The notes under the pieces: model-generated
Database searches by the model: none
Told to the model about the DNA's origin: nothing
The model's input: only the letters and a program-made list of their open reading frames with translations
Shown: positions 236 through 27,623 of the stretch, in pieces
Position numbering within the stretch: the stretch's first letter is position 1
How the letters are laid out: every line of letters begins with the position of its first letter
Translations under genes and position numbers: made by a program
Assembly: GCA_964384105.1 (NCBI GenBank)
Contig: CAYLJV010000001.1
Coordinates: 480,001 to 544,000 of the forward strand
Reading direction: 5' to 3'
Length of the DNA stretch: 64,000 bases
Source of the DNA: Candidatus Hadarchaeota archaeon
GTDB lineage: Archaea; Hadarchaeota; Hadarchaeia; Hadarchaeales; JAGGTB01

Positions 236-1485
236 GGGGAAGTTTCACGGTATTTGCCGCAGTTTTAAAGAACTGGTTCAGGAGTAAGAGCGGAGTTTTC
301 TTTTCCTTCCTCTTTCCTTTGATGCTGTTGTTAATTTTCGGTACGATATTTGGGGGAACTGGAGATCAAAGTTACTCTCTGACTGTTCAGAACAACGACC
401 TGGTGGACGGCCAACCCACTGAGCTCTCTAGTAATTTTGTGGAGACGTTAAATTCCGTTGGAGCACTTAATGTAGATACTATCTCTTCAGGCATAGATCT
501 GGATAAATATGCCGGGGAGGATCCGTCCTTTGAGACCAGAAGGATTCTAGTGATTCCCGAGGGTTTTCAGAAGAGGGCGATGGAGAGGAATATCTATGTT
601 AGAACGGGGGTAATCCTCGACACGTTGGACTACTTTGTAGATAACTATTCTCAATGGGTTGGAGAGAAAAACCTGGAGTCGATGGAGCAGGGGATCTACG
701 CACTTAGGTCCTTCAGGGAAAATATGAGTATCGAGAATGTTGGAGTAGTCCTTTTGACCAGTCAGGGTGACACCTCAGCAGGTATAGTTCAAAGTATAGT
801 TTCCAGCGTAACTAACGCCTTTAATGATCGGATTATCGGTGCAGAGTCGGTCGTAACTATCGACACGGGGGAGATCGTCCAGAGGGAGTTGGACCCGGTC
901 GACTACTATCTACCGGGTTATATTGCGGCTTTCATTATGACAAATGGGATTATCGGAGTGACGACTAATTTTTCTGAGTTCAGGAGGAACGGGGTTATCA
1001 AGAGGTTGGCTGCAACTCCGCTAGGGAAGGGTTCCTGGATAATGGGTAACCTTCTGCACCAGGCCTTGTTGGCGTTTATATTGATGGTCGTGATGATCGG
1101 GGCGGGTTGGGCCATCTTCGGAGTTCAGGCTATCCCCGGAGTGTTCGCGCTTTCACTCATCTTTCTGGGGGCTGTAGTTTTCAGTAGCATCGGAATTGTT
1201 CTCGGTGGTATGATAAAGGACACTGAGGCGGCCAGTGCCGCGGGCAATGCAATCGGTTTTCCAATGATGTTTCTCTCGGGAGCATTCTGGCCGGTGGAGA
1301 TGATGCCTAGTTTCATGCAGTCTGTCGCCAAGGCTATGCCCCTTTACTACTTCCACGAGGGTTTGAGGGAATTAATGATCTACGATAGTCCGAGCGGTGC
1401 TTTGTTCTCTTTCATACTCTATGGTTCACTCGCCGTAGTCTTCGTCCTTCTCGCGATAAAAGTAACTAAGTGGAAGGAATTTTAA
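232..1485 (+). CDS. ABC-2 type exporter permease
   Basis: N-terminal TM (FFSFLFPLMLLLIFG), extracellular loop, EFRRNGVIKRLAATPL and PMMFLSGAFWP ABC-2 motifs. Confidence 0.9.
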   Translation: MRGSFTVFAAVLKNWFRSKSGVFFSFLFPLMLLLIFGTIFGGTGDQSYSLTVQNNDLVDGQPTELSSNFVETLNSVGALNVDTISSGIDLDKYAGEDPSFETRRILVIPEGFQKRAMERNIYVRTGVILDTLDYFVDNYSQWVGEKNLESMEQGIYALRSFRENMSIENVGVVLLTSQGDTSAGIVQSIVSSVTNAFNDRIIGAESVVTIDTGEIVQRELDPVDYYLPGYIAAFIMTNGIIGVTTNFSEFRRNGVIKRLAATPLGKGSWIMGNLLHQALLAFILMVVMIGAGWAIFGVQAIPGVFALSLIFLGAVVFSSIGIVLGGMIKDTEAASAAGNAIGFPMMFLSGAFWPVEMMPSFMQSVAKAMPLYYFHEGLRELMIYDSPSGALFSFILYGSLAVVFVLLAIKVTKWKEF

Positions 1486-1549
1486 TCTTTATCAGGTAAT
1501 GAGAGATTCGGTTAAAAGTTTTTATTAGATCTGTTTAGGACCTCAGATC

Positions 1550-2179
1550 TTATTCTCTTTTGAGCCAAGAGACACCTAGATAAACGAATGGGGTATCAAA
1601 CAGAGCAACTACGATTTTTAGTATCCAGTAGGGTATTATTAGCGCAAAAATGTAGGAAACTGTAAATTTTGGTGATATTCCGTAGAATGCTATGAACATG
1701 AATATTGTGGTGTCTAGAAATTGGCTTGTTATTGTGGATAGGTTGTTTCTTAGCCACAAAAATCTGCCGTGAGTTTTTTCTTTCCAGAAATTAAAAGCCC
1801 AAACGTCATGAAATTGGCTTATAGAGAAGGCGGTTATGCTGGCCACGAAGATTCTCAAACTGATGCCGAAAATTTGAGTGTATTCTTCTTGCACGAGACT
1901 TCTTTCTGCGAATGGAAGAGATACCGAGAGGGATGTCAGCAGTAAAACGAATATTAGGGAAATCAAACCTGTGGTTACCAATTGTTTTGTTTTTTCTTTT
2001 CCGTGTACCTCTTCGATTACATCTGTTATCAAGAAAGTTATTGGAAAAGCGAATATACCTACGGAAAATTCGATAAACCATAATTTTGCGATTTTTGTTC
2101 CTAGCAAATTGGCTGCGATCAAGGCGGCTATAAAAAGACCTTGCAGTAGACTGGTTTTTTTCTCTTTGTTAAATTTCAT
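1550..2179 (-). CDS. Queuosine/archaeosine precursor (preQ0/preQ1) transporter, YhhQ/VUT family
   Basis: FPITFLITDVIEEVHG, SQFHDV, WLRNNLSTITSQFLDT and DTPFVY motifs. Confidence 0.88.
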   Translation of the reverse strand: MKFNKEKKTSLLQGLFIAALIAANLLGTKIAKLWFIEFSVGIFAFPITFLITDVIEEVHGKEKTKQLVTTGLISLIFVLLLTSLSVSLPFAERSLVQEEYTQIFGISLRIFVASITAFSISQFHDVWAFNFWKEKTHGRFLWLRNNLSTITSQFLDTTIFMFIAFYGISPKFTVSYIFALIIPYWILKIVVALFDTPFVYLGVSWLKRE

Positions 2180-2283
2180 ACAACAACAAGAAAATCCATA
2201 GACTTATTAATTTTCCTGAAACAACTCTAAGTCCTGGGTTTAAGAAAAAATATTAGTTCAAAAAGAAATAATAGATAAAGGAG

Positions 2284-2565
2284 GTGAAAAGAATCCTATT
2301 TAGAAAGGATTTCGCATTTATTCAGGCGATAGTAGGTGTTATCCTGATTTTTATCCCTATTGCCACGCTTCTTACTATCTCTAAAGATCAAATGACCTTT
2401 TATCAGGCGAGGGCTTTCTTCACACTGGTTAGTATAGCCTGCGGAGGAGTGGGAGTGTTCCTGATTATGAATGGCTACTACAAGCTTCTCAATAAGTTTA
2501 AAGAATTCGAAGCTTCGGATTTGGAGGAAATCAGAAAAAAAGCACCCTCTTCTGAGTCCGATTAA
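2284..2565 (+). CDS. Small hypothetical membrane protein (2 TM)
   Basis: Two hydrophobic segments; GGAGGTGA SD-like sequence at the start. Confidence 0.5.
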   Translation: MKRILFRKDFAFIQAIVGVILIFIPIATLLTISKDQMTFYQARAFFTLVSIACGGVGVFLIMNGYYKLLNKFKEFEASDLEEIRKKAPSSESD

Positions 2566-2881
2566 TCGGACCTTAGTTTGAGTTCCGGGAGCTTTTAATT
2601 TTCCCCCTTCTTAAGGCTCTAGTCTTATAATTCTTTAAATAAACTCTATTTTCGCAAAGGCTATTTAATTACCCTTTGTGAACTTTTCTAGGCTTTATGG
2701 ATTCCTAAAACTCCGGAAGAAGCTTTTATGTTGTCTTTTTAGTTCTTTAGGTAAACGGTCGTTGGAGATTCTTTAAATATGCCGTTCTTTATCTGGTTAC
2801 CCATGACTGCAAGTGAATGGAGTTAGATTTCAAAAAGTCCAAACACGGATTTCAGTCTCAAAAATCAAGTCAGGAGGTGAA

Positions 2882-3895
2882 ATGAAAATGTTGAATTTAG
2901 GACAAACAGGGATAGCATCAGTAGCGGCAGTGATGGTTTTAGTTGCGGTAGCTGGTGGAGCCGTTGGAACTCCGGTGGCGATGGACTCCTTAGCGGATCA
3001 ACAACCTGATAGTCCGTTGTATGCGCTTGAGAGGCTCGGAGAACGTATAAAAGAGGCAACTTACGCAGGAGGATCTGACTGGAACTTAGATAGGGCGAGA
3101 GAGCGGATAGAAGAGTATCGGCAGGTTTCTGGGAAGGAAGTATCCAACAATCATATTGGTTTGCTTGAAGATGCAGGAAATAATCTAACTACGGCTTCTA
3201 GAAAGGCTGGAGGTGTAGCTGGCTTGGAAAGAGTACAGCAAGCTACTAGAAATCATATAAGAGTTTTAGAAAATTTGAAGGAAGAAGTTTCGGATTCCGC
3301 CAGACCCGCAGTAGAAAGAGCATTGATACACAGCAGATATCAGGAAAGAGTTCTCGAAAACGTTTCAGAGAGGTTAAGAGCGGGTATTCTATCTCCAAGG
3401 TCTCTTAAAGGAGAGTTGGAGAACAGAGACTTCACTCTCGAGGATATTAGAGATCTTCTAGAAAATAAAGGGGTTTCACTGGAAACACTAGAAGAAATCA
3501 TGGAGAATCGAGATATTCCTCTCGAAAACTTGAGTGATTTTCTGAAAGGGAAGAGAGTATCACCTTTGATACTTTGGCAAGTTTTGGATAGAGAGTTCGA
3601 AAATGTGGACAGTGAAGATATTGAAGAGTTAATTCAAAGAATCGAGAATAGACTGGGTAACCTTTGTGACGGAGATGAATTAACTGAGAGAGTAAGAGAG
3701 AGATTGGAGCAGAGATTGGAACAGTCTCAAGGAATAACCGAAAGAATCAGAGATCGACTTACGAATCTTGGTGACCTCGATAAAAAGGTACGCGAGAGAC
3801 TTGAGAATGAACTGAGAGAGATGGAAGGTAGAGAGAGGAGGATCAGAGAAATGCTAGAAAAGAGATTTGAGAACAAGGATGCTAAAGGTTCATAG
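2882..3895 (+). CDS. Membrane-anchored/secreted coiled-coil protein with DUF5667-like domain
   Basis: SD GGAGGTGA at 2873-2880 (start ATG 2882 or 2888); hydrophobic N-terminus; PDSPLYALERLGE motif; E/R-rich helical C-terminus. Confidence 0.7.
   Translation: MKMLNLGQTGIASVAAVMVLVAVAGGAVGTPVAMDSLADQQPDSPLYALERLGERIKEATYAGGSDWNLDRARERIEEYRQVSGKEVSNNHIGLLEDAGNNLTTASRKAGGVAGLERVQQATRNHIRVLENLKEEVSDSARPAVERALIHSRYQERVLENVSERLRAGILSPRSLKGELENRDFTLEDIRDLLENKGVSLETLEEIMENRDIPLENLSDFLKGKRVSPLILWQVLDREFENVDSEDIEELIQRIENRLGNLCDGDELTERVRERLEQRLEQSQGITERIRDRLTNLGDLDKKVRERLENELREMEGRERRIREMLEKRFENKDAKGS
3416..3583 (+). repeat. Four degenerate in-frame 42-bp (14-aa) tandem repeats
   Basis: LENRDFTLEDIRDL / LENKGVSLETLEEI / MENRDIPLENLSDF / LKGKRVSPLILWQV starting at 3416, 3458, 3500, 3542. 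Confidence 0.6.
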
Positions 3896-18742: not shown

Positions 18743-19498
18743 TTGAATTCTGATTTTTCCTTTTTAAGAAAATTTAATGCTTTTATGGGTTTTCTACACC
18801 TTTTTCAGGCTATTTTAATGTTAATCCTCAGTAATGATTTTTCTCTCACGATAACGAATACTTATCCGGGGGGACCGCCGGGAAGTGGGGAAATAATTAC
18901 GGAAAGTATTGGTAGTTTAAGAATAGGTCCATTAGTAGCAGTTTTTCTACTTATTTCTGCAGTTTGTCACTTTTTGCTCGCAACAATTCTCTACGATTGG
19001 TACGTCAGAAACTTAAAGAGAAACATCAATCATCTTCGTTGGATTGAATATTCCTTCAGCAGTTCGATTATGATTGTTATTATCGCTATGTTTGTTGGAT
19101 TTTTTGATATCAGCGTTCTCCTATTGATCTTCATCTTGAACGCTTCTATGATATTTTTTGGATGGTTGATGGAACTTTATAATCAGAGAACTGAGGAAAC
19201 TAAGTGGTCTCCGTTCATTTTTGGTTGCATTGCTGGTGCGGCTCCATGGGTTGCAATTGCCATTCGTCTTATAACGGCTGTTTGGAGTTCTCCAGTAGAC
19301 GTTCCAGGTTTTGTAATAGGAATTTTTGTCTCCATAGCCATTTTCTTTAATATATTCGCCTTGAATCAGTTACTTCAGTACAAGAAAGTAGGTCGTTGGA
19401 GGAATTACATATTCGGCGAAAAAATGTATATCGTTCTTAGCCTTGTAGCAAAATCAGCATTGGCTTGGCAGATTTTCTCTGGAACCCTGATAGATTAA
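18743..19498 (+). CDS. heR: Heliorhodopsin
   Basis: 7 TM; helix A His (FLHLFQA), helix B His (SAVCHF), RWIEYSFSS (Arg plus Glu counterion), LSLVAKS (retinal Lys). Confidence 0.95.
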   Translation: MNSDFSFLRKFNAFMGFLHLFQAILMLILSNDFSLTITNTYPGGPPGSGEIITESIGSLRIGPLVAVFLLISAVCHFLLATILYDWYVRNLKRNINHLRWIEYSFSSSIMIVIIAMFVGFFDISVLLLIFILNASMIFFGWLMELYNQRTEETKWSPFIFGCIAGAAPWVAIAIRLITAVWSSPVDVPGFVIGIFVSIAIFFNIFALNQLLQYKKVGRWRNYIFGEKMYIVLSLVAKSALAWQIFSGTLID

Positions 19499-19939: not shown

Positions 19940-21457
19940 TTGAAAATTTTGGCTAAGTCGCTTATGGGTAAAAAACCGAAAGTAGCCTTCTTTGATTTTG
20001 CAGGTTGTGAAGGAGATCAGTTACAGATAGCAAATCTTGAAGAAAAAATACTGAATCTGTTGGATCTTGTGGAAATAGTAAGTTTCAGAGAGGTTATGAC
20101 TGAACACTCAAACGACTATGATATCGCATTTGTTGAAGGTTCCATAACGAGACCAATGGATGAAGAGCGATTAAAAACTATAAGAGCAGAGGCTAAGAAG
20201 CTTATTGCTTTGGGAGATTGTGCCTGTAATGGTGGTGTAAACAAGTTACGGAATGATTGGTCGGTAGAGGATGTGGAAGAGGAGGTTTATCAGGGATCGG
20301 AGGATGTGATAAAAGACAACGAATTCTTCAACGCATATCCAACTAAGGCAGTTGATGAGATTGTGGATGTGGACTATTACATACGGGGATGTCCGGTTGA
20401 AGGAGAACAGGTGTTTTATTTCATAAAAAGACTGGTCTCTATGCCTTTAGAATCTAACAAAGATGTTTATTTTGACATTACGTTAAAAAATATAGATGTA
20501 GACGAACGTTCTCTGGTCAGTTACAATCCCAACAAGTGCATTCTATGCCGACGATGTGCCAATATTTGCCAAGACGTTTTGGGTGTTGATGCATTAGGCC
20601 CGGTCGATAGAGGGTGGACTACCATTATTTCGACCCCTGAAAACATAGGCTTTGATGCTAATGGTTGCATACAGTGTGGTCAGTGTATTTCTGTTTGTCC
20701 AGTCAATGCGCTTTACACAAAGTCACCTGTAGAGGGTTTGATTGAAGAGCTGAAAAATAGTGAACTTTCTATTGCTGTGGATTCCGTTGCGCTAGCATCT
20801 TTTGTTCAGAATCACCGGCTACTCAGTGATCTAGATCCAAGTCTCGCAGAGAAATATGTTGTAGCAGGTCTTAGGAAAATAGGATTTCGTAGAGTACTTC
20901 AGTATGATAATTATCTCCATAAGTCTCGAGAGGAGGATGAGAAGGCCGATAGTGCGATTCTTGCTAGCTGGTGTCTCCCTGCTCGAAATTATTTTGATGT
21001 TAGTAGTACCAGTGTTCTACGTTCGTATGAGGAAAACTCTCCTTGGAATTTGCTTATAGGTGAGGAGGGCGAAGGAGTCTGCTTGTTGAGTCCGTGTATA
21101 GGTCTCAAGGAGATTGAGCGATTAGGACCTGTGATTACTTCTCCGGAATTGGAAGAACTTTTCAATAAGATGGAATTAGATTTGGGGTTTTTGGATCCAG
21201 AGAATGGCGAGTATGACGGAGAGGTTGTTGACGAAGGTTTCGAACATCCAGGTGTTCCATCTAAAAAGGATACATTCAATATCACTGATGATTTGAAAAA
21301 TGAATTAGCTGAATCAGATCTTTCTGAGGGCCCAATTGGTGTTTTTCCATGTCTTAAGGGATGTGTGAGTGGTGGCGGTAATTATCCCACCGTCGATGAA
21401 TCCGATATACAGGAAAGAGTTGATTGGATTAATAATTTGAGGGGGGTTAATTTATGA
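19940..21457 (+). CDS. Hybrid subunit: group 3 [NiFe] small-subunit N-domain + 2x[4Fe-4S] + degenerate [FeFe]-hydrogenase (HydA) H-domain
   Basis: AGCEGD, FVEGSI, GDCA and RGCP; then KCILCRRC and CIQCGQCISVCP; then SWCLP, SPCIGLK and FPCLKGCVSGGG. Confidence 0.88.
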   Translation: MKILAKSLMGKKPKVAFFDFAGCEGDQLQIANLEEKILNLLDLVEIVSFREVMTEHSNDYDIAFVEGSITRPMDEERLKTIRAEAKKLIALGDCACNGGVNKLRNDWSVEDVEEEVYQGSEDVIKDNEFFNAYPTKAVDEIVDVDYYIRGCPVEGEQVFYFIKRLVSMPLESNKDVYFDITLKNIDVDERSLVSYNPNKCILCRRCANICQDVLGVDALGPVDRGWTTIISTPENIGFDANGCIQCGQCISVCPVNALYTKSPVEGLIEELKNSELSIAVDSVALASFVQNHRLLSDLDPSLAEKYVVAGLRKIGFRRVLQYDNYLHKSREEDEKADSAILASWCLPARNYFDVSSTSVLRSYEENSPWNLLIGEEGEGVCLLSPCIGLKEIERLGPVITSPELEELFNKMELDLGFLDPENGEYDGEVVDEGFEHPGVPSKKDTFNITDDLKNELAESDLSEGPIGVFPCLKGCVSGGGNYPTVDESDIQERVDWINNLRGVNL

Positions 21458-21939
21458 TGGAGAGCAAGGTTGAAGAGTTGTCTTGGGAAGAGAAAAGGAA
21501 ACTAGAGAAGATAATAGACTCTGTTGATAATCCTGAATATCAGAAAATAGAGCTTCTTCAAAAGACTCAAGAGGAGTATGGATGGTTGAAAGGTGAACAC
21601 ATGAAGTATATCGCTGAATGTATTGATACCAGTTATACAGATCTTTTTGGTATTGCGACCTTCTATTCTCAATTTACTCTTCATCCGCCAGGTCGTCACA
21701 AGATATCTGTCTGCATGGGGACCAGTTGTCATGTGAAAGGGGGCGAAGAGCTGATGGAAGAGTTACAGGAAATATTGAATATAGGAGTTGGCGAAACAAC
21801 GGACGACAAACGATTCTCTCTTAATCAGGTTAGATGTTTAGGTTGTTGTGGTCTTGCTCCGGTGATTGATATAGATGGTAAGATATTCAGTAGGGTTAGA
21901 CCCGCTCAAATAGAAGATATTCTGGAAGAATTTGAATAG
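21454..21939 (+). CDS. HydC/NuoE-like [2Fe-2S] subunit
   Basis: ATFYSQF, VCMGTSCHVKG, CLGCCGLAP. Confidence 0.93.
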   Translation: MMESKVEELSWEEKRKLEKIIDSVDNPEYQKIELLQKTQEEYGWLKGEHMKYIAECIDTSYTDLFGIATFYSQFTLHPPGRHKISVCMGTSCHVKGGEELMEELQEILNIGVGETTDDKRFSLNQVRCLGCCGLAPVIDIDGKIFSRVRPAQIEDILEEFE

Positions 21940-21947
21940 GTGATAAG

Positions 21948-24900
21948 ATGGTTATAGAAAAAATAGAAGATTTGGAAGAGATGGCCAAGATAGGCAAAAG
22001 AGAATTGGAATCCTATAATCCTAAGATAATATTTGGACATTCTACGTGCGGTATAGCTGCTGGTGCAGACGAGTTGATTGATTTTACAAAAGAATATTTA
22101 CGCAAAAATAATATCAAAGAAAAAATTGGGGAAAGAGGTCAGCCAGATATCGTTTCAGTAGGCTGTATAGGGATGTGTCATGCTGAACCACTTGTTGATA
22201 TTAAGATGCCAAAAAAGCCCAGAGTCACTTACTATAATGTTGATAAAAATAAATTGGAGCGCATATTAAACGAGCACTTGATCAATGACCGTCCAGTTGA
22301 AGAGTATGTACTGGGTCAACTCTCAAAAGAATTATCCGTTTGTGAACACGGGAGAGTTGATTACTCGTGGCAGTACGAACGCATACCCTCTTTAGATGAA
22401 CTTCCATTTTTATCCAAGCAAGTCAGAGTAGTTCTCAGAAATTGTGGTATTATAAATCCCGAATCTATTGGACAGTATGTTGCCAGAGGTGGTTACAGGT
22501 CCGCTTTAAAGGTTCTCAGTAAATACCATCCGCAGGGGGTCATAGAGGAGGTAAAAGAAGCAAATCTAAGAGGGCGGGGTGGAGCTGGTTTCCCGACTGG
22601 TTTAAAGTGGGAATTTGTGAGAAAGGCCGATGGAGAGCCAAAGTATTTAATTTGTAATGCCGATGAGGGGGATCCAGGCGCGTATATGGATCGTTCAGTT
22701 TTGGAGGGTGATCCACACAGCGTTATAGAGGGTATGATAATTGGTGCATACGCTATGGGTGCCTCTGTTGGTTATATTTACGTGAGAGCTGAATATCCGC
22801 TAGCCATTAAAAGATTGAAAAATGCTATAGAACAGGCGAAAGAGTACAACCTTCTCGGCGAGAATATTATGGGTAGCGATTTTTCTTTTGAGCTGAAAAT
22901 AATGAAGGGTGCTGGTGCTTTTGTTTGCGGTGAAGAGACTGCGCTTATCGCTTCTATAGAGGGTAAGAGAGGGGAACCACGTACTAAACCACCTTTCCCT
23001 GCGAATTCCGGTTTGTTTGGTAAGCCAACTAATGTGAACAATGTTGAGACGTGGGCGAACGTTCCTATGATTTTCGAGAAAGGTGCTGATTGGTTTAAAA
23101 GTATTGGTACAGAGAAGAGCAAGGGTACAAAGGTCTTTTCTCTTGTGGGAAACGTAGAACGTTCTGGGTTAGTTGAGATACCGATGGGAACCAAATTGAA
23201 AGAGATAATATACGAAATTGGAGGGAACATGGAAAATAACAGGAGGTTTAAAGCCGTGCAAACTGGTGGGCCTTCAGGCGGATGTATACCTGTAGATCAT
23301 CTCGATGTTGAAGTTGATTATGAGAACTTGAAAAAACTCGGATCTATTGTCGGTTCCGGCGGAATGGTTGCTATGGATGAAGACACATGTATGGTCGATG
23401 TTGCCAGATACTTTTTGGATTTTTGTGTAGGAGAATCCTGTGGACAGTGTGTTCCCTGTAGAATAGGAACCAGACGAATGCTCGAGATTCTGGACCGTAT
23501 AACTAGAGGTGAAGGAGATATAAAGGACATTGATATTTTGGAACATCTCGCGGTTCAAGTTAGAGATGGTTCACTTTGTGCCCTTGGTGGGACTGCTCCC
23601 AACCCAGTCCTAACTACTCTCAAATATTTCAGAAATGAGTATGAACAACATATTGAGGGAAAAGAGTGCCCTGCATCTTCCTGTGCCACCTTATTCCTTT
23701 CTCCCTGTCAAGACACGTGCCCAGCTGGTACGAATGTGCCTGGTCAAATGCAACTAGTTGTAGAAGGACGAATTGGAGAAGCTTATGAGCTACAGCGGGA
23801 GGATAATCCATTCCCTGGAGTTTCTGGTAGAGTATGTGATCACCCTTGTGAGGACCGGTGTCAACGGAGTCAACTTGATCGAGCGGTTTCGGTTATGGCT
23901 CAACATAGATTCGTCGCAGACCAGGTTTATTCTGGGGAGGTAGAGGATAGACCAGAGACCACAAGACTCGATCCAACAGGCAGAAGTATTGGAATTATTG
24001 GAGGGGGACCGGCAGGTCTTACAGCTGCTTATTTCCTGAAGAGACTGGGCCATGATGTTACAATATATGAAGGCCGTCCTGAACTTGGTGGCATGCTTAG
24101 GTGGGGGATCCCTGAGTACAGACTTCCTAGAGATATATTGGACTGGGAGATTCAGCAGATAATAGATCTTGGCGTTAATGTAAAACTTGACACTTCTGTT
24201 GGAAAAGACATATCATTTAATGAGGTACTGGATACGCATGATTCGATTTTCCTAGGTATTGGGGCTCATAAAGATATCTCGCTTGGATTAGAAAACAGCG
24301 ATGTGCTTGGGATACTGGAGGGGATGAAACTTTTAGAGAAGGTAAACAAGGGCGAGGAAGTAGAACTAGGTAACACAGTTCTGATAATTGGTGGGGGGAA
24401 CGTTTCAGTTGATATGGCAAGAACAGCACGGAGGTTAGGTTGTGAGAGAGTTATAGTCGCATATAGGCGGGAAGAGGTCGACATGCCGGCTTACCCTGAA
24501 GAAGTCGAGGAGGCTAAAAGGGAAGGTGTTGATTTCAAATTCCTCCTGTCTCCTGAAGAGATTATAGTTGAAGGTGGGAAGGCTGCAGGAATGGTATTTA
24601 CTAAGACTGAGATGGGTGAATATACCAAGGAAGGGCGTCGAAAACCGATGCCTTTAGAATATGAGAAAACCGTTTTGATGGCTGACACCATCATAACTGC
24701 TATCGGTCAGGAGATAGACAAAAGTTTTGCAGAAGATTTAGTTGATGAACTAACTGATGAGGAAAATAGACTTTTAGAGGTTGATTCCCTCACAATGAAG
24801 ACAAATCATCCAAAAATATTCGCGGGTGGGGATGCAGTTTTAGGTCCCTCAACAGTAATTGAAGCAGTCTCTCATGGTAAAAAAGCTGCTAAGGAAATAG

Positions 24901-25136
24901 ATGCTGAACTAATGGGTGAAGATAGGATGGAAGAACTGAGGAGTATTAATGACTATGATTATTCCATGGAAGAACGTGATAATGAGCAGTATATCCCCAG
25001 AGCGGAATTACAATCGCTCTCTGTTGAGGAGAGAAAAGATAATTTCAAAGAGGTTATTAAGTGTATGGATAGAGAAACTGCTGTGGGGGAGGCAGAACGC
25101 TGCCTAAGGTGTGATATAGGGAAGGGAGGAAAATAA
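21948..25136 (+). CDS. HydB/NuoF-like FMN diaphorase fused to a GltD/NfnB-like FAD-NAD(P)H domain
   Basis: N-terminal thioredoxin-like Cys domain; GRGGAGFP, NADEGDPG, CGEETAL, GGPSGG, CGQCVPCR; then GRVCDHPCE, GGGPAG, GGGNV, YRR, EAERCLRC. Confidence 0.93.
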   Translation: MVIEKIEDLEEMAKIGKRELESYNPKIIFGHSTCGIAAGADELIDFTKEYLRKNNIKEKIGERGQPDIVSVGCIGMCHAEPLVDIKMPKKPRVTYYNVDKNKLERILNEHLINDRPVEEYVLGQLSKELSVCEHGRVDYSWQYERIPSLDELPFLSKQVRVVLRNCGIINPESIGQYVARGGYRSALKVLSKYHPQGVIEEVKEANLRGRGGAGFPTGLKWEFVRKADGEPKYLICNADEGDPGAYMDRSVLEGDPHSVIEGMIIGAYAMGASVGYIYVRAEYPLAIKRLKNAIEQAKEYNLLGENIMGSDFSFELKIMKGAGAFVCGEETALIASIEGKRGEPRTKPPFPANSGLFGKPTNVNNVETWANVPMIFEKGADWFKSIGTEKSKGTKVFSLVGNVERSGLVEIPMGTKLKEIIYEIGGNMENNRRFKAVQTGGPSGGCIPVDHLDVEVDYENLKKLGSIVGSGGMVAMDEDTCMVDVARYFLDFCVGESCGQCVPCRIGTRRMLEILDRITRGEGDIKDIDILEHLAVQVRDGSLCALGGTAPNPVLTTLKYFRNEYEQHIEGKECPASSCATLFLSPCQDTCPAGTNVPGQMQLVVEGRIGEAYELQREDNPFPGVSGRVCDHPCEDRCQRSQLDRAVSVMAQHRFVADQVYSGEVEDRPETTRLDPTGRSIGIIGGGPAGLTAAYFLKRLGHDVTIYEGRPELGGMLRWGIPEYRLPRDILDWEIQQIIDLGVNVKLDTSVGKDISFNEVLDTHDSIFLGIGAHKDISLGLENSDVLGILEGMKLLEKVNKGEEVELGNTVLIIGGGNVSVDMARTARRLGCERVIVAYRREEVDMPAYPEEVEEAKREGVDFKFLLSPEEIIVEGGKAAGMVFTKTEMGEYTKEGRRKPMPLEYEKTVLMADTIITAIGQEIDKSFAEDLVDELTDEENRLLEVDSLTMKTNHPKIFAGGDAVLGPSTVIEAVSHGKKAAKEIDAELMGEDRMEELRSINDYDYSMEERDNEQYIPRAELQSLSVEERKDNFKEVIKCMDRETAVGEAERCLRCDIGKGGK

Positions 25137-25804
25137 TGGAAATAATCATAGATGGTGAACAGTATGAATGCCAGCCGGGTCAGAAAGTTTATGATGTGGC
25201 TGAAGAGAATGGTATTCATATTCCCACTCTCTGCTATAATCATTTGATTCCTGAGATAAGACCAGGTGCATGTAGAATTTGTGTTGTAGAGGTTGTTAAT
25301 AATGGTAAAGAAACGCAACTTGAGTCTAGTTGCACTTTGCCAGTCTCTGAAGGTCTAGAAGTTTCAACAAATAGTCAGGCTGTATACGATGAGAGGAGAC
25401 AGGACCTTGAACTGATGCTTTCTGAACATGAACAGGATTGTCGAAATTGTGTCAAGAGTGGAAATTGTAACTTTGCCGAGCTATGCTTGGAATATGATAT
25501 AGATGGAGTATCTATATGTGCAGAGTGTCCTAAGCAAGAGAGTGGATGTTTTCTTTCCAGGGGGGTGCTTTGCCTCGGTCCGATAACCCATGCAGGTTGC
25601 GATGCTTTCTGTCTGAGGAAGGACGAACCATGCGAGGGGTGTTTCAGCTTGCTTAGCGATGAGAGTGTACTAAAATTCGGTATTGAAGCCTTAAAGGAGA
25701 CGGGATTTGATAAGGATGAAGTACTTGAGGCTGTGAAGATTTTTTCTTTTGATGGGTTAAAACGGTTAGAAATGTTAATGGAAAAAGAGGGATGGAATGA
25801 GTAA
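25136..25804 (+). CDS. HydA/NuoG N-terminal [2Fe-2S]+His-[4Fe-4S] domain fused to the C-terminal half of a [NiFe] small subunit
   Basis: IPTLC...GACRICVVE...SC and HEQDCRNC..SGNC; then ICAEC...CLGPITHAGCDAFC...PCEGC. Confidence 0.88.
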   Translation: MEIIIDGEQYECQPGQKVYDVAEENGIHIPTLCYNHLIPEIRPGACRICVVEVVNNGKETQLESSCTLPVSEGLEVSTNSQAVYDERRQDLELMLSEHEQDCRNCVKSGNCNFAELCLEYDIDGVSICAECPKQESGCFLSRGVLCLGPITHAGCDAFCLRKDEPCEGCFSLLSDESVLKFGIEALKETGFDKDEVLEAVKIFSFDGLKRLEMLMEKEGWNE

Positions 25805-27104
25805 AATTGATATAAATGTGGAACTTTTGACTCGAGTTGAGGGACACGGTAACATAGTAGTTAATGCAGAGGAGGGCAAGATTAAGGAACTTTCGTGGAA
25901 AGTTGAAGAAGCCCCGCGATATTTTGAGGCTTTAGTTAAAGGTAAACCACATCACCAGTTAGCTCAGATTACTTCGAGAATTTGCGGAATTTGTTCCATG
26001 GCTCATCAATTAACTTCTTTGAAAGCTACAGAAAACGCGATGAATATCGAAGTATCTGAACGCGATGAACTTCTTAGAAGGCTTGCACTTCACGGTGAAT
26101 TTATTCAAAGCCATGTTCTCCACTGTGGTTATTTGGCTTTGCCGGATTTACTTGAAGTTGGATCAGTTATACCTTTAGCTTCTTCAAATCCAGATGAACT
26201 TAAAAATGTCATTAGGGTGCATAGAGTGGGTAATGAACTTTCTGACTTAGTCGGAGGTAGAAATACGCATCAACGAAGGCTTGTCCTAGGTGGACTTTCA
26301 AAACTGCCTTCACCACTAGAACTTAGGACATTAAAAAGTAAATTAGCTGATTCTTTAAAGGATTTAGAGAAATTGGTATCGTTCTTGAAGGGAGTGGTGT
26401 CCCAGTTACCTGATTTTAGACGCGAGACTGAATTTATATCTTTGAATCATGAAAAAAGATATCCACTCTACGATGGTAACATAGTTTCATCTGATACAGG
26501 TACTGCTCCGGTTGAGAAGTATTTGTCGATAACTAATGAGTATGTGGTTCCACAATCAACAGCTAAATACACTAAGCACAATCGGGAATCTTATATGACT
26601 GGAGCTCTAGCGAGATTTAATAATAATTATGATCATCTTGGGTCAGAGGCTAAGGAAGTTGCAGAAGAGTTTGGATTGGAACCAATATGTCATAGACCTT
26701 TCATGAACAATATTGCTCAGGTAGTAGAAACTGTACACTGTACTGTAGACGCAATAAAAATTATCGATGAATTGTTAGACAAAGGACTGGACTCTCAGGG
26801 TGAATATTGTCAACCTCACGTAGACGTAAAATCAGGAAGAGGAGTTGGAGCAGTTGAAGCTCCACGAGGTATTCTCTTCCACGACTATACTTACAATAAG
26901 AAGGGAGTGTGTACTAAAGCGAATTGTATTATTCCTACTAATCAGAATCATGGAAACATTCAGAGAGATTTAGAAAAAATGGTGCCAGAAATGATGGATG
27001 AGCCAGAGGAAAAAATAGAACATTCTTTAGAAATGTTGGTGAGAGCCTATGATCCATGTATTTCTTGTTCTACACATTATCTAGACGTAGATTTCGTTGA
27101 TTAA
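25797..27104 (+). CDS. [NiFe]-hydrogenase large subunit, group 3 (3b-like)
   Basis: TRVEGHG, L1 RICGIC, EAPRG, L2 DPCISCSTH followed by a short cleavable tail. Confidence 0.96.
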   Translation: MSKIDINVELLTRVEGHGNIVVNAEEGKIKELSWKVEEAPRYFEALVKGKPHHQLAQITSRICGICSMAHQLTSLKATENAMNIEVSERDELLRRLALHGEFIQSHVLHCGYLALPDLLEVGSVIPLASSNPDELKNVIRVHRVGNELSDLVGGRNTHQRRLVLGGLSKLPSPLELRTLKSKLADSLKDLEKLVSFLKGVVSQLPDFRRETEFISLNHEKRYPLYDGNIVSSDTGTAPVEKYLSITNEYVVPQSTAKYTKHNRESYMTGALARFNNNYDHLGSEAKEVAEEFGLEPICHRPFMNNIAQVVETVHCTVDAIKIIDELLDKGLDSQGEYCQPHVDVKSGRGVGAVEAPRGILFHDYTYNKKGVCTKANCIIPTNQNHGNIQRDLEKMVPEMMDEPEEKIEHSLEMLVRAYDPCISCSTHYLDVDFVD

Positions 27105-27161
27105 CTGCTTTTTGTTCGATCAATTCATGAAGATCTTTGAGAATACAGATTTAACTTTACG

Positions 27162-27623
27162 ATGAAGGCAATTATAGGTTTGGGAAATCCAATTAGGGCT
27201 GATGATGGAATAGGCATACGCTTAATTAAAGAAATTAGGAAAAAGGATCTCCCTCCCGATGTGGAAGTTTTCGACTCTGGCAACCGGGTAATGAGATTAT
27301 TACATCTTTTAAACGATTTAGAAATAGCCGTTATAGTAGATGCAGTCCATTTTGGTGGAAATCCAGGAGATTTTGTTTTCTTTTCGCCGGAAGAAGTAAA
27401 GTCTCTGAACACATCTAAAAATACCCATGATACCAATATTCTGGAGGTTCTTGAACTATCCAAAACTCTGAATAAAGAATCAAAAGAGATAATAATAATG
27501 GGGATTGAACCGAAAGATACGTCTTTTGAGGAAGGTATTTCGCAAGAACTTAAAGATCGCCTGCCTGAGATGATAGATGAATTATTAAAGAAAATAATGG
27601 TTATGGGATCGGATGGAAAATGA
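27162..27623 (+). CDS. Hydrogenase maturation endopeptidase (HycI/HybD family)
   Basis: GLGNPIRADDGIG, VDAV, NTHD. Confidence 0.93.
   Translation: MKAIIGLGNPIRADDGIGIRLIKEIRKKDLPPDVEVFDSGNRVMRLLHLLNDLEIAVIVDAVHFGGNPGDFVFFSPEEVKSLNTSKNTHDTNILEVLELSKTLNKESKEIIIMGIEPKDTSFEEGISQELKDRLPEMIDELLKKIMVMGSDGK

Follow-up and report, generated by a model that had tools for sequence, protein, structure and literature searches.

The stretch of DNA analysed here (the window) comprises 64,000 nucleotides of a contig from a Candidatus Hadarchaeota archaeon, and at 19940-27623 it carries six close-set genes, all on the forward strand, that encode a putative [FeFe]/[NiFe] hybrid hydrogenase and a maturation protease (Table 1). 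A sequence-only reading of this DNA had proposed a one-step origin for hybrid hydrogenases that it did not know to be described; the operon type itself is already in the literature, as the group F [FeFe] / group 3f [NiFe] hybrid hydrogenases, whose five subunit genes are exactly those seen here (Greening et al., Cell 2024, PMC11216029; cited throughout from part of its text). Two of the genes are the subject of this analysis, since each joins part of an [FeFe]-hydrogenase HydA to part of the small subunit of a group 3 [NiFe] hydrogenase. We refer to the N- and C-terminal halves of the small subunit as S(N) and S(C), to the corresponding parts of HydA as A(N) and A(C), to the two chimeras as SA and AS (HydD), and to HydC, HydB and HyhL in gene orders as C, B and L. 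Locus handles (L and a number) refer to the census described below.

Table 1. Genes and domains of the hybrid hydrogenase locus, in window positions
Feature	Position	Strand	Size and evidence
SA fusion gene (published name HydA-HyhS)	19940..21457	+	505 amino acids (aa); Pfam and PDB sequence matches, 14 aligned fusions
S(N), flavodoxin-like N-half of group 3 [NiFe] small subunit, residues 1 to ~175	19940..20464	+	Oxidored_q6
A(C) part 1, HydA-type 2x[4Fe-4S] ferredoxin domain, residues ~176-265	20465..20734	+	8 invariant Cys
A(C) part 2, divergent short [FeFe] H-domain	20735..21454	+	~240 aa
hydC, NuoE-like thioredoxin-like [2Fe-2S] subunit	21454..21939	+	Pfam 2Fe-2S_thioredx 3e-48
hydB, NuoF-like FMN/[4Fe-4S] module and GltD/Pyr_redox_2-like flavoprotein module	21948..25136	+	1062 aa
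hydD (AS chimera)	25136..25804	+	222 aa; Pfam and PDB sequence matches
A(N), [2Fe-2S] domain (C33, C46, C49, C66) and His-ligated [4Fe-4S] domain (H98, C102, C105, C111)	25136..25510	+	
S(C), C-half of group 3 small subunit	25511..25804	+	8 invariant Cys: C128, C131, C138, C146, C155, C159, C166, C169
hyhL, group 3 [NiFe] large subunit	25797..27104	+	435 aa; Pfam NiFeSe_Hases 6e-30
HycI-type [NiFe] large-subunit maturation protease	27162..27623	+	Pfam HycI 1e-22

In the product of the first gene, a [NiFe] small-subunit domain at the N-terminus and an [FeFe] H-domain at the C-terminus share a single chain. Pfam matches Oxidored_q6 at residues 23-164 (3e-24) and a Fer4 dicluster at residues 192-259, and residues 9-167 align with small subunits in the PDB (MvhG 3-165, P. 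furiosus sulfhydrogenase I (SHI) delta 3-148, HoxY and A. mobile HydS), with C23, C94 and C151 as proximal-cluster ligands. Residues 175-321 then form one continuous PDB alignment with residues 121-266 of bifurcating HydA, and a further match to HydA covers the L3 region (residues 466-494). Within the H-domain, four cysteines and a glycine triplet are invariant in the 14 aligned fusions (W344-C345, P385-C386, C471, C475 and GGG478-480). The start codon in the sequence-only reading, TTG 19940, is probably not the true one: relatives begin at the equivalent of Met9, which favours ATG 19964; the open reading frames are otherwise as given there.

The H-domain of SA occurs in a short form of ~240 aa (the window and L002-L031) and a long form of ~330 aa, and in comparisons of L010, L022, L026, L032 and L034 with the window the two forms were 20-25% identical, whereas S(N) was 65-70% identical. 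At residue 26 (window 20015-20017), the position of the second Cys of the proximal CxxC, the window, L002 and L003 have Asp (GCEGD), L032 has Glu (CAGE) and most other listed or aligned fusions have Cys. An Asp cluster ligand is known from Frh.

HydD shows the converse composition. Pfam matches Fer2_4 at residues 2-80 and NADH-G_4Fe-4S_3 at residues 87-124, and a PDB sequence search aligns residues 1-125 with residues 1-123 of HydA. Beyond this point (residues 125-222) no Pfam family matches, Fer4 families included, but phmmer aligns residues 123-217 with residues 160-254 of the 261-residue P. furiosus SHI delta (E 2e-10), such that the C-terminal helices and all eight cysteines of HydD line up; these cysteines correspond to the medial and distal [4Fe-4S] sites. 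A word-index search with S(C) retrieved only 6 HydD proteins, and relatives were therefore taken from an exhaustive profile search, in which 605 of 1.84 billion representatives matched at E<=1e-3. Among the best 150 of these 605 matches, 112 are intact small subunits aligned at residues ~160-250, and the other 38 comprise 33 proteins with the C-half only (mostly short fragments), 3 HydD-like proteins and 2 fused to HyhL. The profile matches also include P0123 (248 aa), P0130, P0135, P0139, P0167 and P0171, which have two S(C)-like stretches or are ~430-460 aa long. For HydD as a whole, the nearest relatives are 65-67% identical and are labelled Hadarchaeota, Halarchaeoplasma and Thermoplasmata.

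If the C-half of HydD had no small-subunit ancestry and were instead a 2x[4Fe-4S] ferredoxin-like tail of the generic kind seen in HoxU or NuoG, the Pfam blank would be unsurprising, as would the outcome of fold searches, which speaks against our assignment: an AlphaFold2 (AF2) model of whole HydD (pLDDT 74.8) gave Foldseek matches to the N-part only, and a model of S(C) alone (pLDDT 67.1) gave 0 matches at E<=0.001, with SHI delta (9nez_A) at rank 25 (TMq 0.52, E 5). These searches were uninformative, probably because the cluster loops were modelled without cofactors. A ferredoxin tail would moreover be expected neither to align with SHI delta at all eight cysteines, nor to draw its best profile matches predominantly from the C-halves of intact small subunits, nor to lack any Fer4 match, and on the strength of the SHI delta and profile matches we reject this alternative as highly improbable. 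The same matches exclude the possibility that the C-terminus of HydD is unrelated to small-subunit C-domains.

The two chimeras are complementary almost to the residue. Measured against an intact 257-aa small subunit from L025, which adjoins a related hybrid operon, SA covers residues 2 to ~168 and HydD begins at 169/170; measured against a 571-aa bacterial HydA, HydD covers residues 1-116 and SA residues 137-262. Judged from these alignments, each parent is cut once, with no overlap and a gap of at most a few residues, and neither chimera contains a linker. A canonical group 3 small subunit, with proximal, medial and distal sites in one chain, is accordingly not what the locus encodes, as the proximal site lies on gene 19940 and the eight-Cys medial/distal part on gene 25136; nor does the locus encode the HydA of trimeric bifurcating enzymes (group A3, M3 architecture) in one chain, the [2Fe-2S] and His-ligated [4Fe-4S] domains being on HydD and the 2x[4Fe-4S] and H-domains on SA. 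The sequence-only reading had proposed that gene 19940 joins a small-subunit N-half to the HydA 2x[4Fe-4S] and H-domains, that gene 25136 joins the HydA N-part to a small-subunit C-half, that the breakpoints are complementary in both parents and that all parental Fe-S domains are kept. Our data bear out all of these: the compositions by the Pfam, PDB and SHI delta matches, the breakpoints to within about 5 residues, and the Fe-S domains by the invariance of all ligand sets in 22 HydD sequences and 14 fusions. We regard an architecture of two reciprocal chimeras as nearly certain. An assembly artefact was considered and ruled out, because the arrangement is kept in independent assemblies.

To survey the arrangement we scanned genomes, one per species, and found 36 loci with full-length HydD. 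Both chimeras are present in all 29 of those in which the upstream part of the locus is available; the contigs of the other seven begin later. A metagenome scan with divergent HydDs added 38 further loci, of which 33 have both chimeras and five are too short or unclear. The NuoG-like subunit of other hybrid loci thus carries the same C-half as that of the window, a check that the sequence-only reading had proposed, and the swap is a property of the family, not of the window alone.

If both parental enzymes are divided between the same two chains, those chains should associate. In a two-chain model, SA and AS gave an ipSAE of 0.84 (best of 3 controls, 0.00); of 80 solved complexes 58 attained the mark for this score, as did 2 of 110 mismatched pairs. 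HydA and small subunits have been solved as single chains, however, so that a pass by SA and AS shows likeness, not proof. At least 93% of contacts were shared between the three runs, with a partner pLDDT of at least 87. The modelled interface sets S(N), the junction, Fer4 and H of chain 1 against A(N), the junction and S(C) of chain 2, so that contacts are restored within the S parts as well as within the A parts. This is in keeping with a proposal in which the wires of the two parents are re-formed in trans.

Under this proposal, SA would hold the proximal cluster, two F-clusters and the H-cluster site, and AS the [2Fe-2S], His-ligated [4Fe-4S], medial and distal sites. The two proteins would have to pair, the wire that leaves the [NiFe] site of HyhL being re-formed by S(N) with S(C) and that of the H-cluster by A(N) with A(C), and both wires, meeting at the NuoG-like part, would feed the NuoE/NuoF-like HydC and HydB(-GltD), as in bifurcating HydABC. 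The split thereby offers a structural reason why each hydrogenase half would need the other chain. That the complex is a bifurcating hybrid we consider rather more probable than not. For the locus as a whole, we judge the best explanation to be, with good probability, a five-subunit group F [FeFe] / 3f [NiFe] hybrid with two reciprocal chimeras and a maturation protease. Weighing against this are the H-domain of the window copy, which is short and has no Pfam match, and the maturation genes, as HydE, HydF and HydG all fall short of the NCBIfam cut-offs in the window's own genome (1.62 Mb, 90% complete). PF02906 is matched by the SA relatives in L032, L034, L113, L123 and L130, and the SA proteins of operon orders III and IV (below) match Oxidored_q6, Fer4 and Fe_hyd_lg_C. 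Most such archaea likewise have no HydE, HydF or HydG, according to the published text, and of two group F fusions expressed there, one was clearly active, producing H2 in a lysate assay after artificial maturation (PMC11216029).

Gene order varies among the loci in a manner that bears on how the swap arose. Order I, SA-C-B-AS-L, is found in the window, in 28 of the 29 informative genome loci and in L110. Order II, C-B-SA-AS-L, occurs in L032 (a genome locus), L105 and L108, and partially in L106, L107 and L109; order III, C-B-AS-L-SA, in 17 metagenome loci (14 complete, 3 partial); and order IV, C-B-AS-SA with no HyhL between, in 10 loci. Taken as a circle (SA, C, B, AS, L), orders I and III are identical and differ in where they start, the former reading as hydCBA inside hyhS and the latter as hyhSL inside hydA. 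A quick tree of the A(N) domains of HydDs (outgroup-rooted, 68 rows; values starred in its output are marked) contains three deep lineages, namely a clade of order III (support 95, starred), order III with order IV nested within it (85), and order I with order II nested within it (97, starred; order II 99, starred). In the SA of three order III and IV loci that we inspected (L113 9943-11331, L123 6348-7757 and L130 8697-10130), PCxxKK and CPGGCxxGGGQP-like motifs are retained and there is no Cys at the position of the window's W-C pair (the L1 position), so the H-cluster site may be altered in these proteins.

The simplest history would be a single reciprocal crossover between hydA and hyhS, yielding both chimeras at once. 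Such a one-step origin is favoured by the complementarity of the junctions at residue level, by the lack of any locus with a single chimera, and by the cyclic order shared by orders I and III, which is expected from one crossover of a C-B-A unit with an S-L unit. We consider a single crossover, irrespective of topology, to be the most economical origin and give it roughly an even chance. The sequence-only reading had specified a topology, in which a circular hydC-hydB-hydA molecule, opened within hydA, integrates by one crossover into the hyhS of a hyhS-hyhL(-protease) operon. This would produce SA-C-B-AS-L, exactly the order of the window and of nearly all genome loci, with complementary junctions and with the protease after hyhL, as in intact S-L-protease paralogues. 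Set against it, 17 loci have C-B-AS-L-SA, an order that lies just as deep and corresponds to insertion the other way round, and there is no sign of a circular donor. The proposed topology is hence one of at least two equally good versions, and taken by itself we find it unlikely.

A second topology is suggested by operons in which the same building blocks are unswapped. Of 401 genomes searched in one archaeal phylum, 4 have an intact M3-type HydA, an intact small subunit and HyhL on a single strand, with HydC-HydB upstream in one of the four. These operons are probably group G / 3g of Greening et al., for which the published text describes an unfused small subunit downstream of hydA (PMC11216029), and their existence means that hydA and hyhS may have been neighbours before the swap. 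In a pre-existing hydC-hydB-hydA-hyhS-hyhL operon, an intramolecular swap would leave C-B-AS-L and excise an S(N)-A(C) circle able to re-enter before C or after L, which agrees with B and AS being neighbours in orders I, III and IV, with AS and L being neighbours in orders I, II and III, and with the varying position of SA. The unswapped operons do not, however, look like close kin of the hybrids: their A(N) is 35-36% identical to that of the hybrids, where bacterial relatives reach 42-49%, their HydA scores 58-70 bits with the H-domain profile and bacterial HydA 58-64 bits, and their small-subunit halves have no resolved placement. As re-insertion would also constitute a second event, we hold an intramolecular origin to be doubtful.

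Evidence on the ancestry of the halves comes from an intact S-L-protease paralogue, present in many Thermoplasmata-type genomes and in the window's own (C1:229843-232304). Small-subunit trees were built with FastTree (121 rows) and then with IQ-TREE (58 rows), and their backbones are largely without resolution. The 58 rows were drawn from 27 hybrids (13 rows), 8 neighbouring paralogues (5 rows) and the 86 of the 112 intact small subunits that have 225-330 aa (40 rows, 16 of them taken by nearness and 24 at random with seed 1); P0166, P0141, P0262, P0241, P0259, P0223 and P0199 were left out before the draw as gappy or long, and hy_L004 and hy_L005 had been left out earlier as near-duplicates. 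The sequence-only reading had named congruent trees for the halves as support, and for the small subunit this failed in the window's clade. In the N-half tree, core hybrids and paralogues form one clade (100/98) nested among ordinary small subunits, whereas in the C-half tree all 13 hybrids group together (91/88) and the paralogue groups with P0178 (98/89). Forcing the C-halves of hybrids and paralogues together costs 30.6 log-likelihood units (approximately unbiased (AU) test, p = 0.049); forcing all hybrid N-halves to be monophyletic is unrejected (p = 0.249). Pairwise identities tell the same story, since core hybrids and the neighbouring paralogue are 54.5% identical in the N-half and 25.7% in the C-half, a value below the 29.4% identity of the hybrid C-half to other intact small subunits. 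Together with the weak root branch of the A(N) tree (support 69) and the ambiguous affinity of A(N) itself, these results count against descent of all parts from one founding swap. As to that affinity, A(N) is monophyletic among the hybrids (98, starred) and is 42-49% identical to Fdh/YjgC-like proteins and 40-44% to HydA; by sequence comparison its origin is indistinguishable from that of Fdh/NuoG-like proteins.

Incongruent halves are what a stepwise history would predict, in which HydA and the small subunit were first split and then separately fused to new partners, with domain borders setting the breakpoints. Both breakpoints do coincide with natural borders between domains, other systems have shortened small subunits (HoxY, 189 aa; A. 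mobile HydS, 179 aa), and there are HydA forms without the N-part. Yet no intermediate occurs among the 29 and 33 informative loci, neither chimera has a linker or has lost residues, and the cyclic order common to orders I and III is left unexplained, for which reasons we assign a stepwise origin a low probability. Within a one-crossover history, the incongruence has two possible sources: either S(C) evolved faster once the swap had taken place, or the paralogue later supplied a new S(N) and HyhL. For the clade that includes the window, S(N) and HyhL together seem closer to the intact paralogue than S(C) is, and the published text reports that large subunits fall into several clusters (PMC11216029). 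The proximity of S(N) and HyhL to an intact S-L paralogue would also suit insertion of a hydCBA circle, and the separation of S(C) from that paralogue would not. Of the one-step origin as put forward in the sequence-only reading, the cyclic order and the junctions are supported and the polarity and the circular donor are not, and the congruence of the small-subunit halves failed in the window's clade. Our own tentative account, which we rate somewhat short of an even chance, is that one crossover founded all group F hybrids, that S(N)+HyhL of Thermoplasmata-type hybrids were later renewed from the paralogue, and that the family reaches into Balneolales-labelled bacteria and into Hdr-linked forms without HyhL. 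A founding crossover would explain the residue-exact junctions, the fact that no chimera ever stands alone and the cyclic order of the two deepest layouts.

As for the reach of the family, 11 of the 36 genome loci carry bacterial titles (L007-L009, L011, L014, L015, L017, L019, L020, L029 and L036), eight of them naming the Balneolales group and the others Gemmatimonadales, Nealsonbacteria and Gammaproteobacteria. Group F is treated as archaeal in the published text (PMC11216029); the titles would imply a spread to bacteria. Balneolales-labelled contigs are flanked by HypF, HypB, a protease and a PyrD-like gene, flanks that say nothing about the taxon; the GC content is 0.47-0.59 in the six Balneolales-group loci measured, and in four loci of this group a HoxEFUYH-like operon lies directly downstream. 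In the soda-lake-type loci L003, L004, L005 and L020, a second HydC-HydB-A(N)/Fer4 (Bfu-like) cluster lies, divergently oriented, on the minus strand at ~460-3430, just upstream of the hybrid operon. Two Hadarchaeota-labelled loci, L033 and L034, have no hyhL after HydD. In L034 (119-9267), a 797-aa HdrA-MvhD-like fusion lies upstream and a 386-aa gene of the CCG/Fer4 HdrB/C-like type downstream, which suggests an [FeFe] arm wired via the split small subunit to heterodisulfide-reductase-like partners.

Returning to the window, the Pfam matches of HydB are to Complex1_51K (4e-50), NADH_4Fe-4S, Fer4_20 and Pyr_redox_2, and the HyhL translation has RICGICS near its N-terminus and DPCISC near its C-terminus. 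A heliorhodopsin gene (18743-19498, forward strand; PF18761, E 2e-101) lies ~440 bp upstream of the operon and an eRF1 gene, an archaeal marker, downstream; the window flanks show no synteny with the 36 genome loci. At least four more hydrogenase-like or Bfu-like loci are present in the same genome (C1:229843-232304, C1:412780-415679, C5:15549-22123, C6:3222-8910 and C1:28578-38543), their types being the intact 3b-like S-L-protease paralogue, an Mvh-like S-L pair, a Hox/NiFe-HydABCSL-like operon, an Nfn/Bfu-like cluster and a group-4-like pair.

Collectively, these findings indicate that the [NiFe] small subunit of the hybrid is not simply fused to HydA, but is halved and cross-wired with a likewise halved HydA. 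They turn the origin of the hybrids into a concrete recombination model open to testing, and the census contributes four layouts of the operon, an unswapped layout that may be a precursor, and an apparent bacterial spread.

Comparison with known systems places the locus in the published class. The window has contiguous hydC, hydB, hydD (with four Fe-S sites) and hyhL, and its proteins are kin to those of a published group F/3f member, the Methanomassiliicoccales archaeon UBA147, whose contig is our L025 (HydD 52-55% and HyhL 58% identical). Relative to P. furiosus SHI delta (group 3b, PDB 9nez_A), a single 261-aa chain, the small subunit here is split over two genes 5 kb apart. Homologues of HydB and HydC of bifurcating [FeFe] HydABC (T. 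maritima 7p5h, T. kivui 8a6t, A. woodii 7q4v) are present, and the three bifurcating HydA chains are within the top four PDB matches of A(N) and the top three of A(C); unlike in HydABC, the HydA of the window is split after the His-ligated cluster domain and HydB has an extra GltD-like module. The [NiFe]-HydABCSL of A. mobile (7t2r) and HoxEFUYH (5xf9) likewise wire a NuoE/F/G-like module to a group 3 [NiFe] dimer and have a small subunit cut down to its proximal-cluster half, but, unlike the window, they lack an H-domain, and their NuoG-like chain does not carry the C-half of a small subunit. The unswapped operons, with HydA, small subunit and HyhL unfused, have the same building blocks and no chimeras.

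The published group F/3f enzymes share with the window the HydA-HyhS fusion, HydC, HydB with its glutamate-synthase-like domain, a four-cluster HydD and HyhL, and an AF2 model of all five subunits has been presented for UBA147 (PMC11216029). In the text of that work, the fusion is said to carry the three [4Fe-4S] clusters of the [NiFe] component and HydD is described as a NuoG-like conduit with four clusters; our assignment changes this, in that two of the fusion's three relay clusters are the F-clusters derived from HydA, and the medial and distal clusters are on HydD. Chain E of 5ODC (MvhG) is among the cofactor templates for HydD in the published Methods, so small-subunit likeness is implicit in that model. 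In the text covered here, a split small subunit is not described and 'domain swap', 'medial', 'distal' and 'Balneol' occur 0 times; the figures, supplementary Tables S2/S6 and Dataset S1 might show the HydD/MvhG likeness, and our literature searches found no later treatment of the split. The enzyme class is thus known, and the reciprocal split is a refinement unstated in the published text as far as covered: what separates the window from the published group F/3f hybrids is a difference of reading, not of kind.

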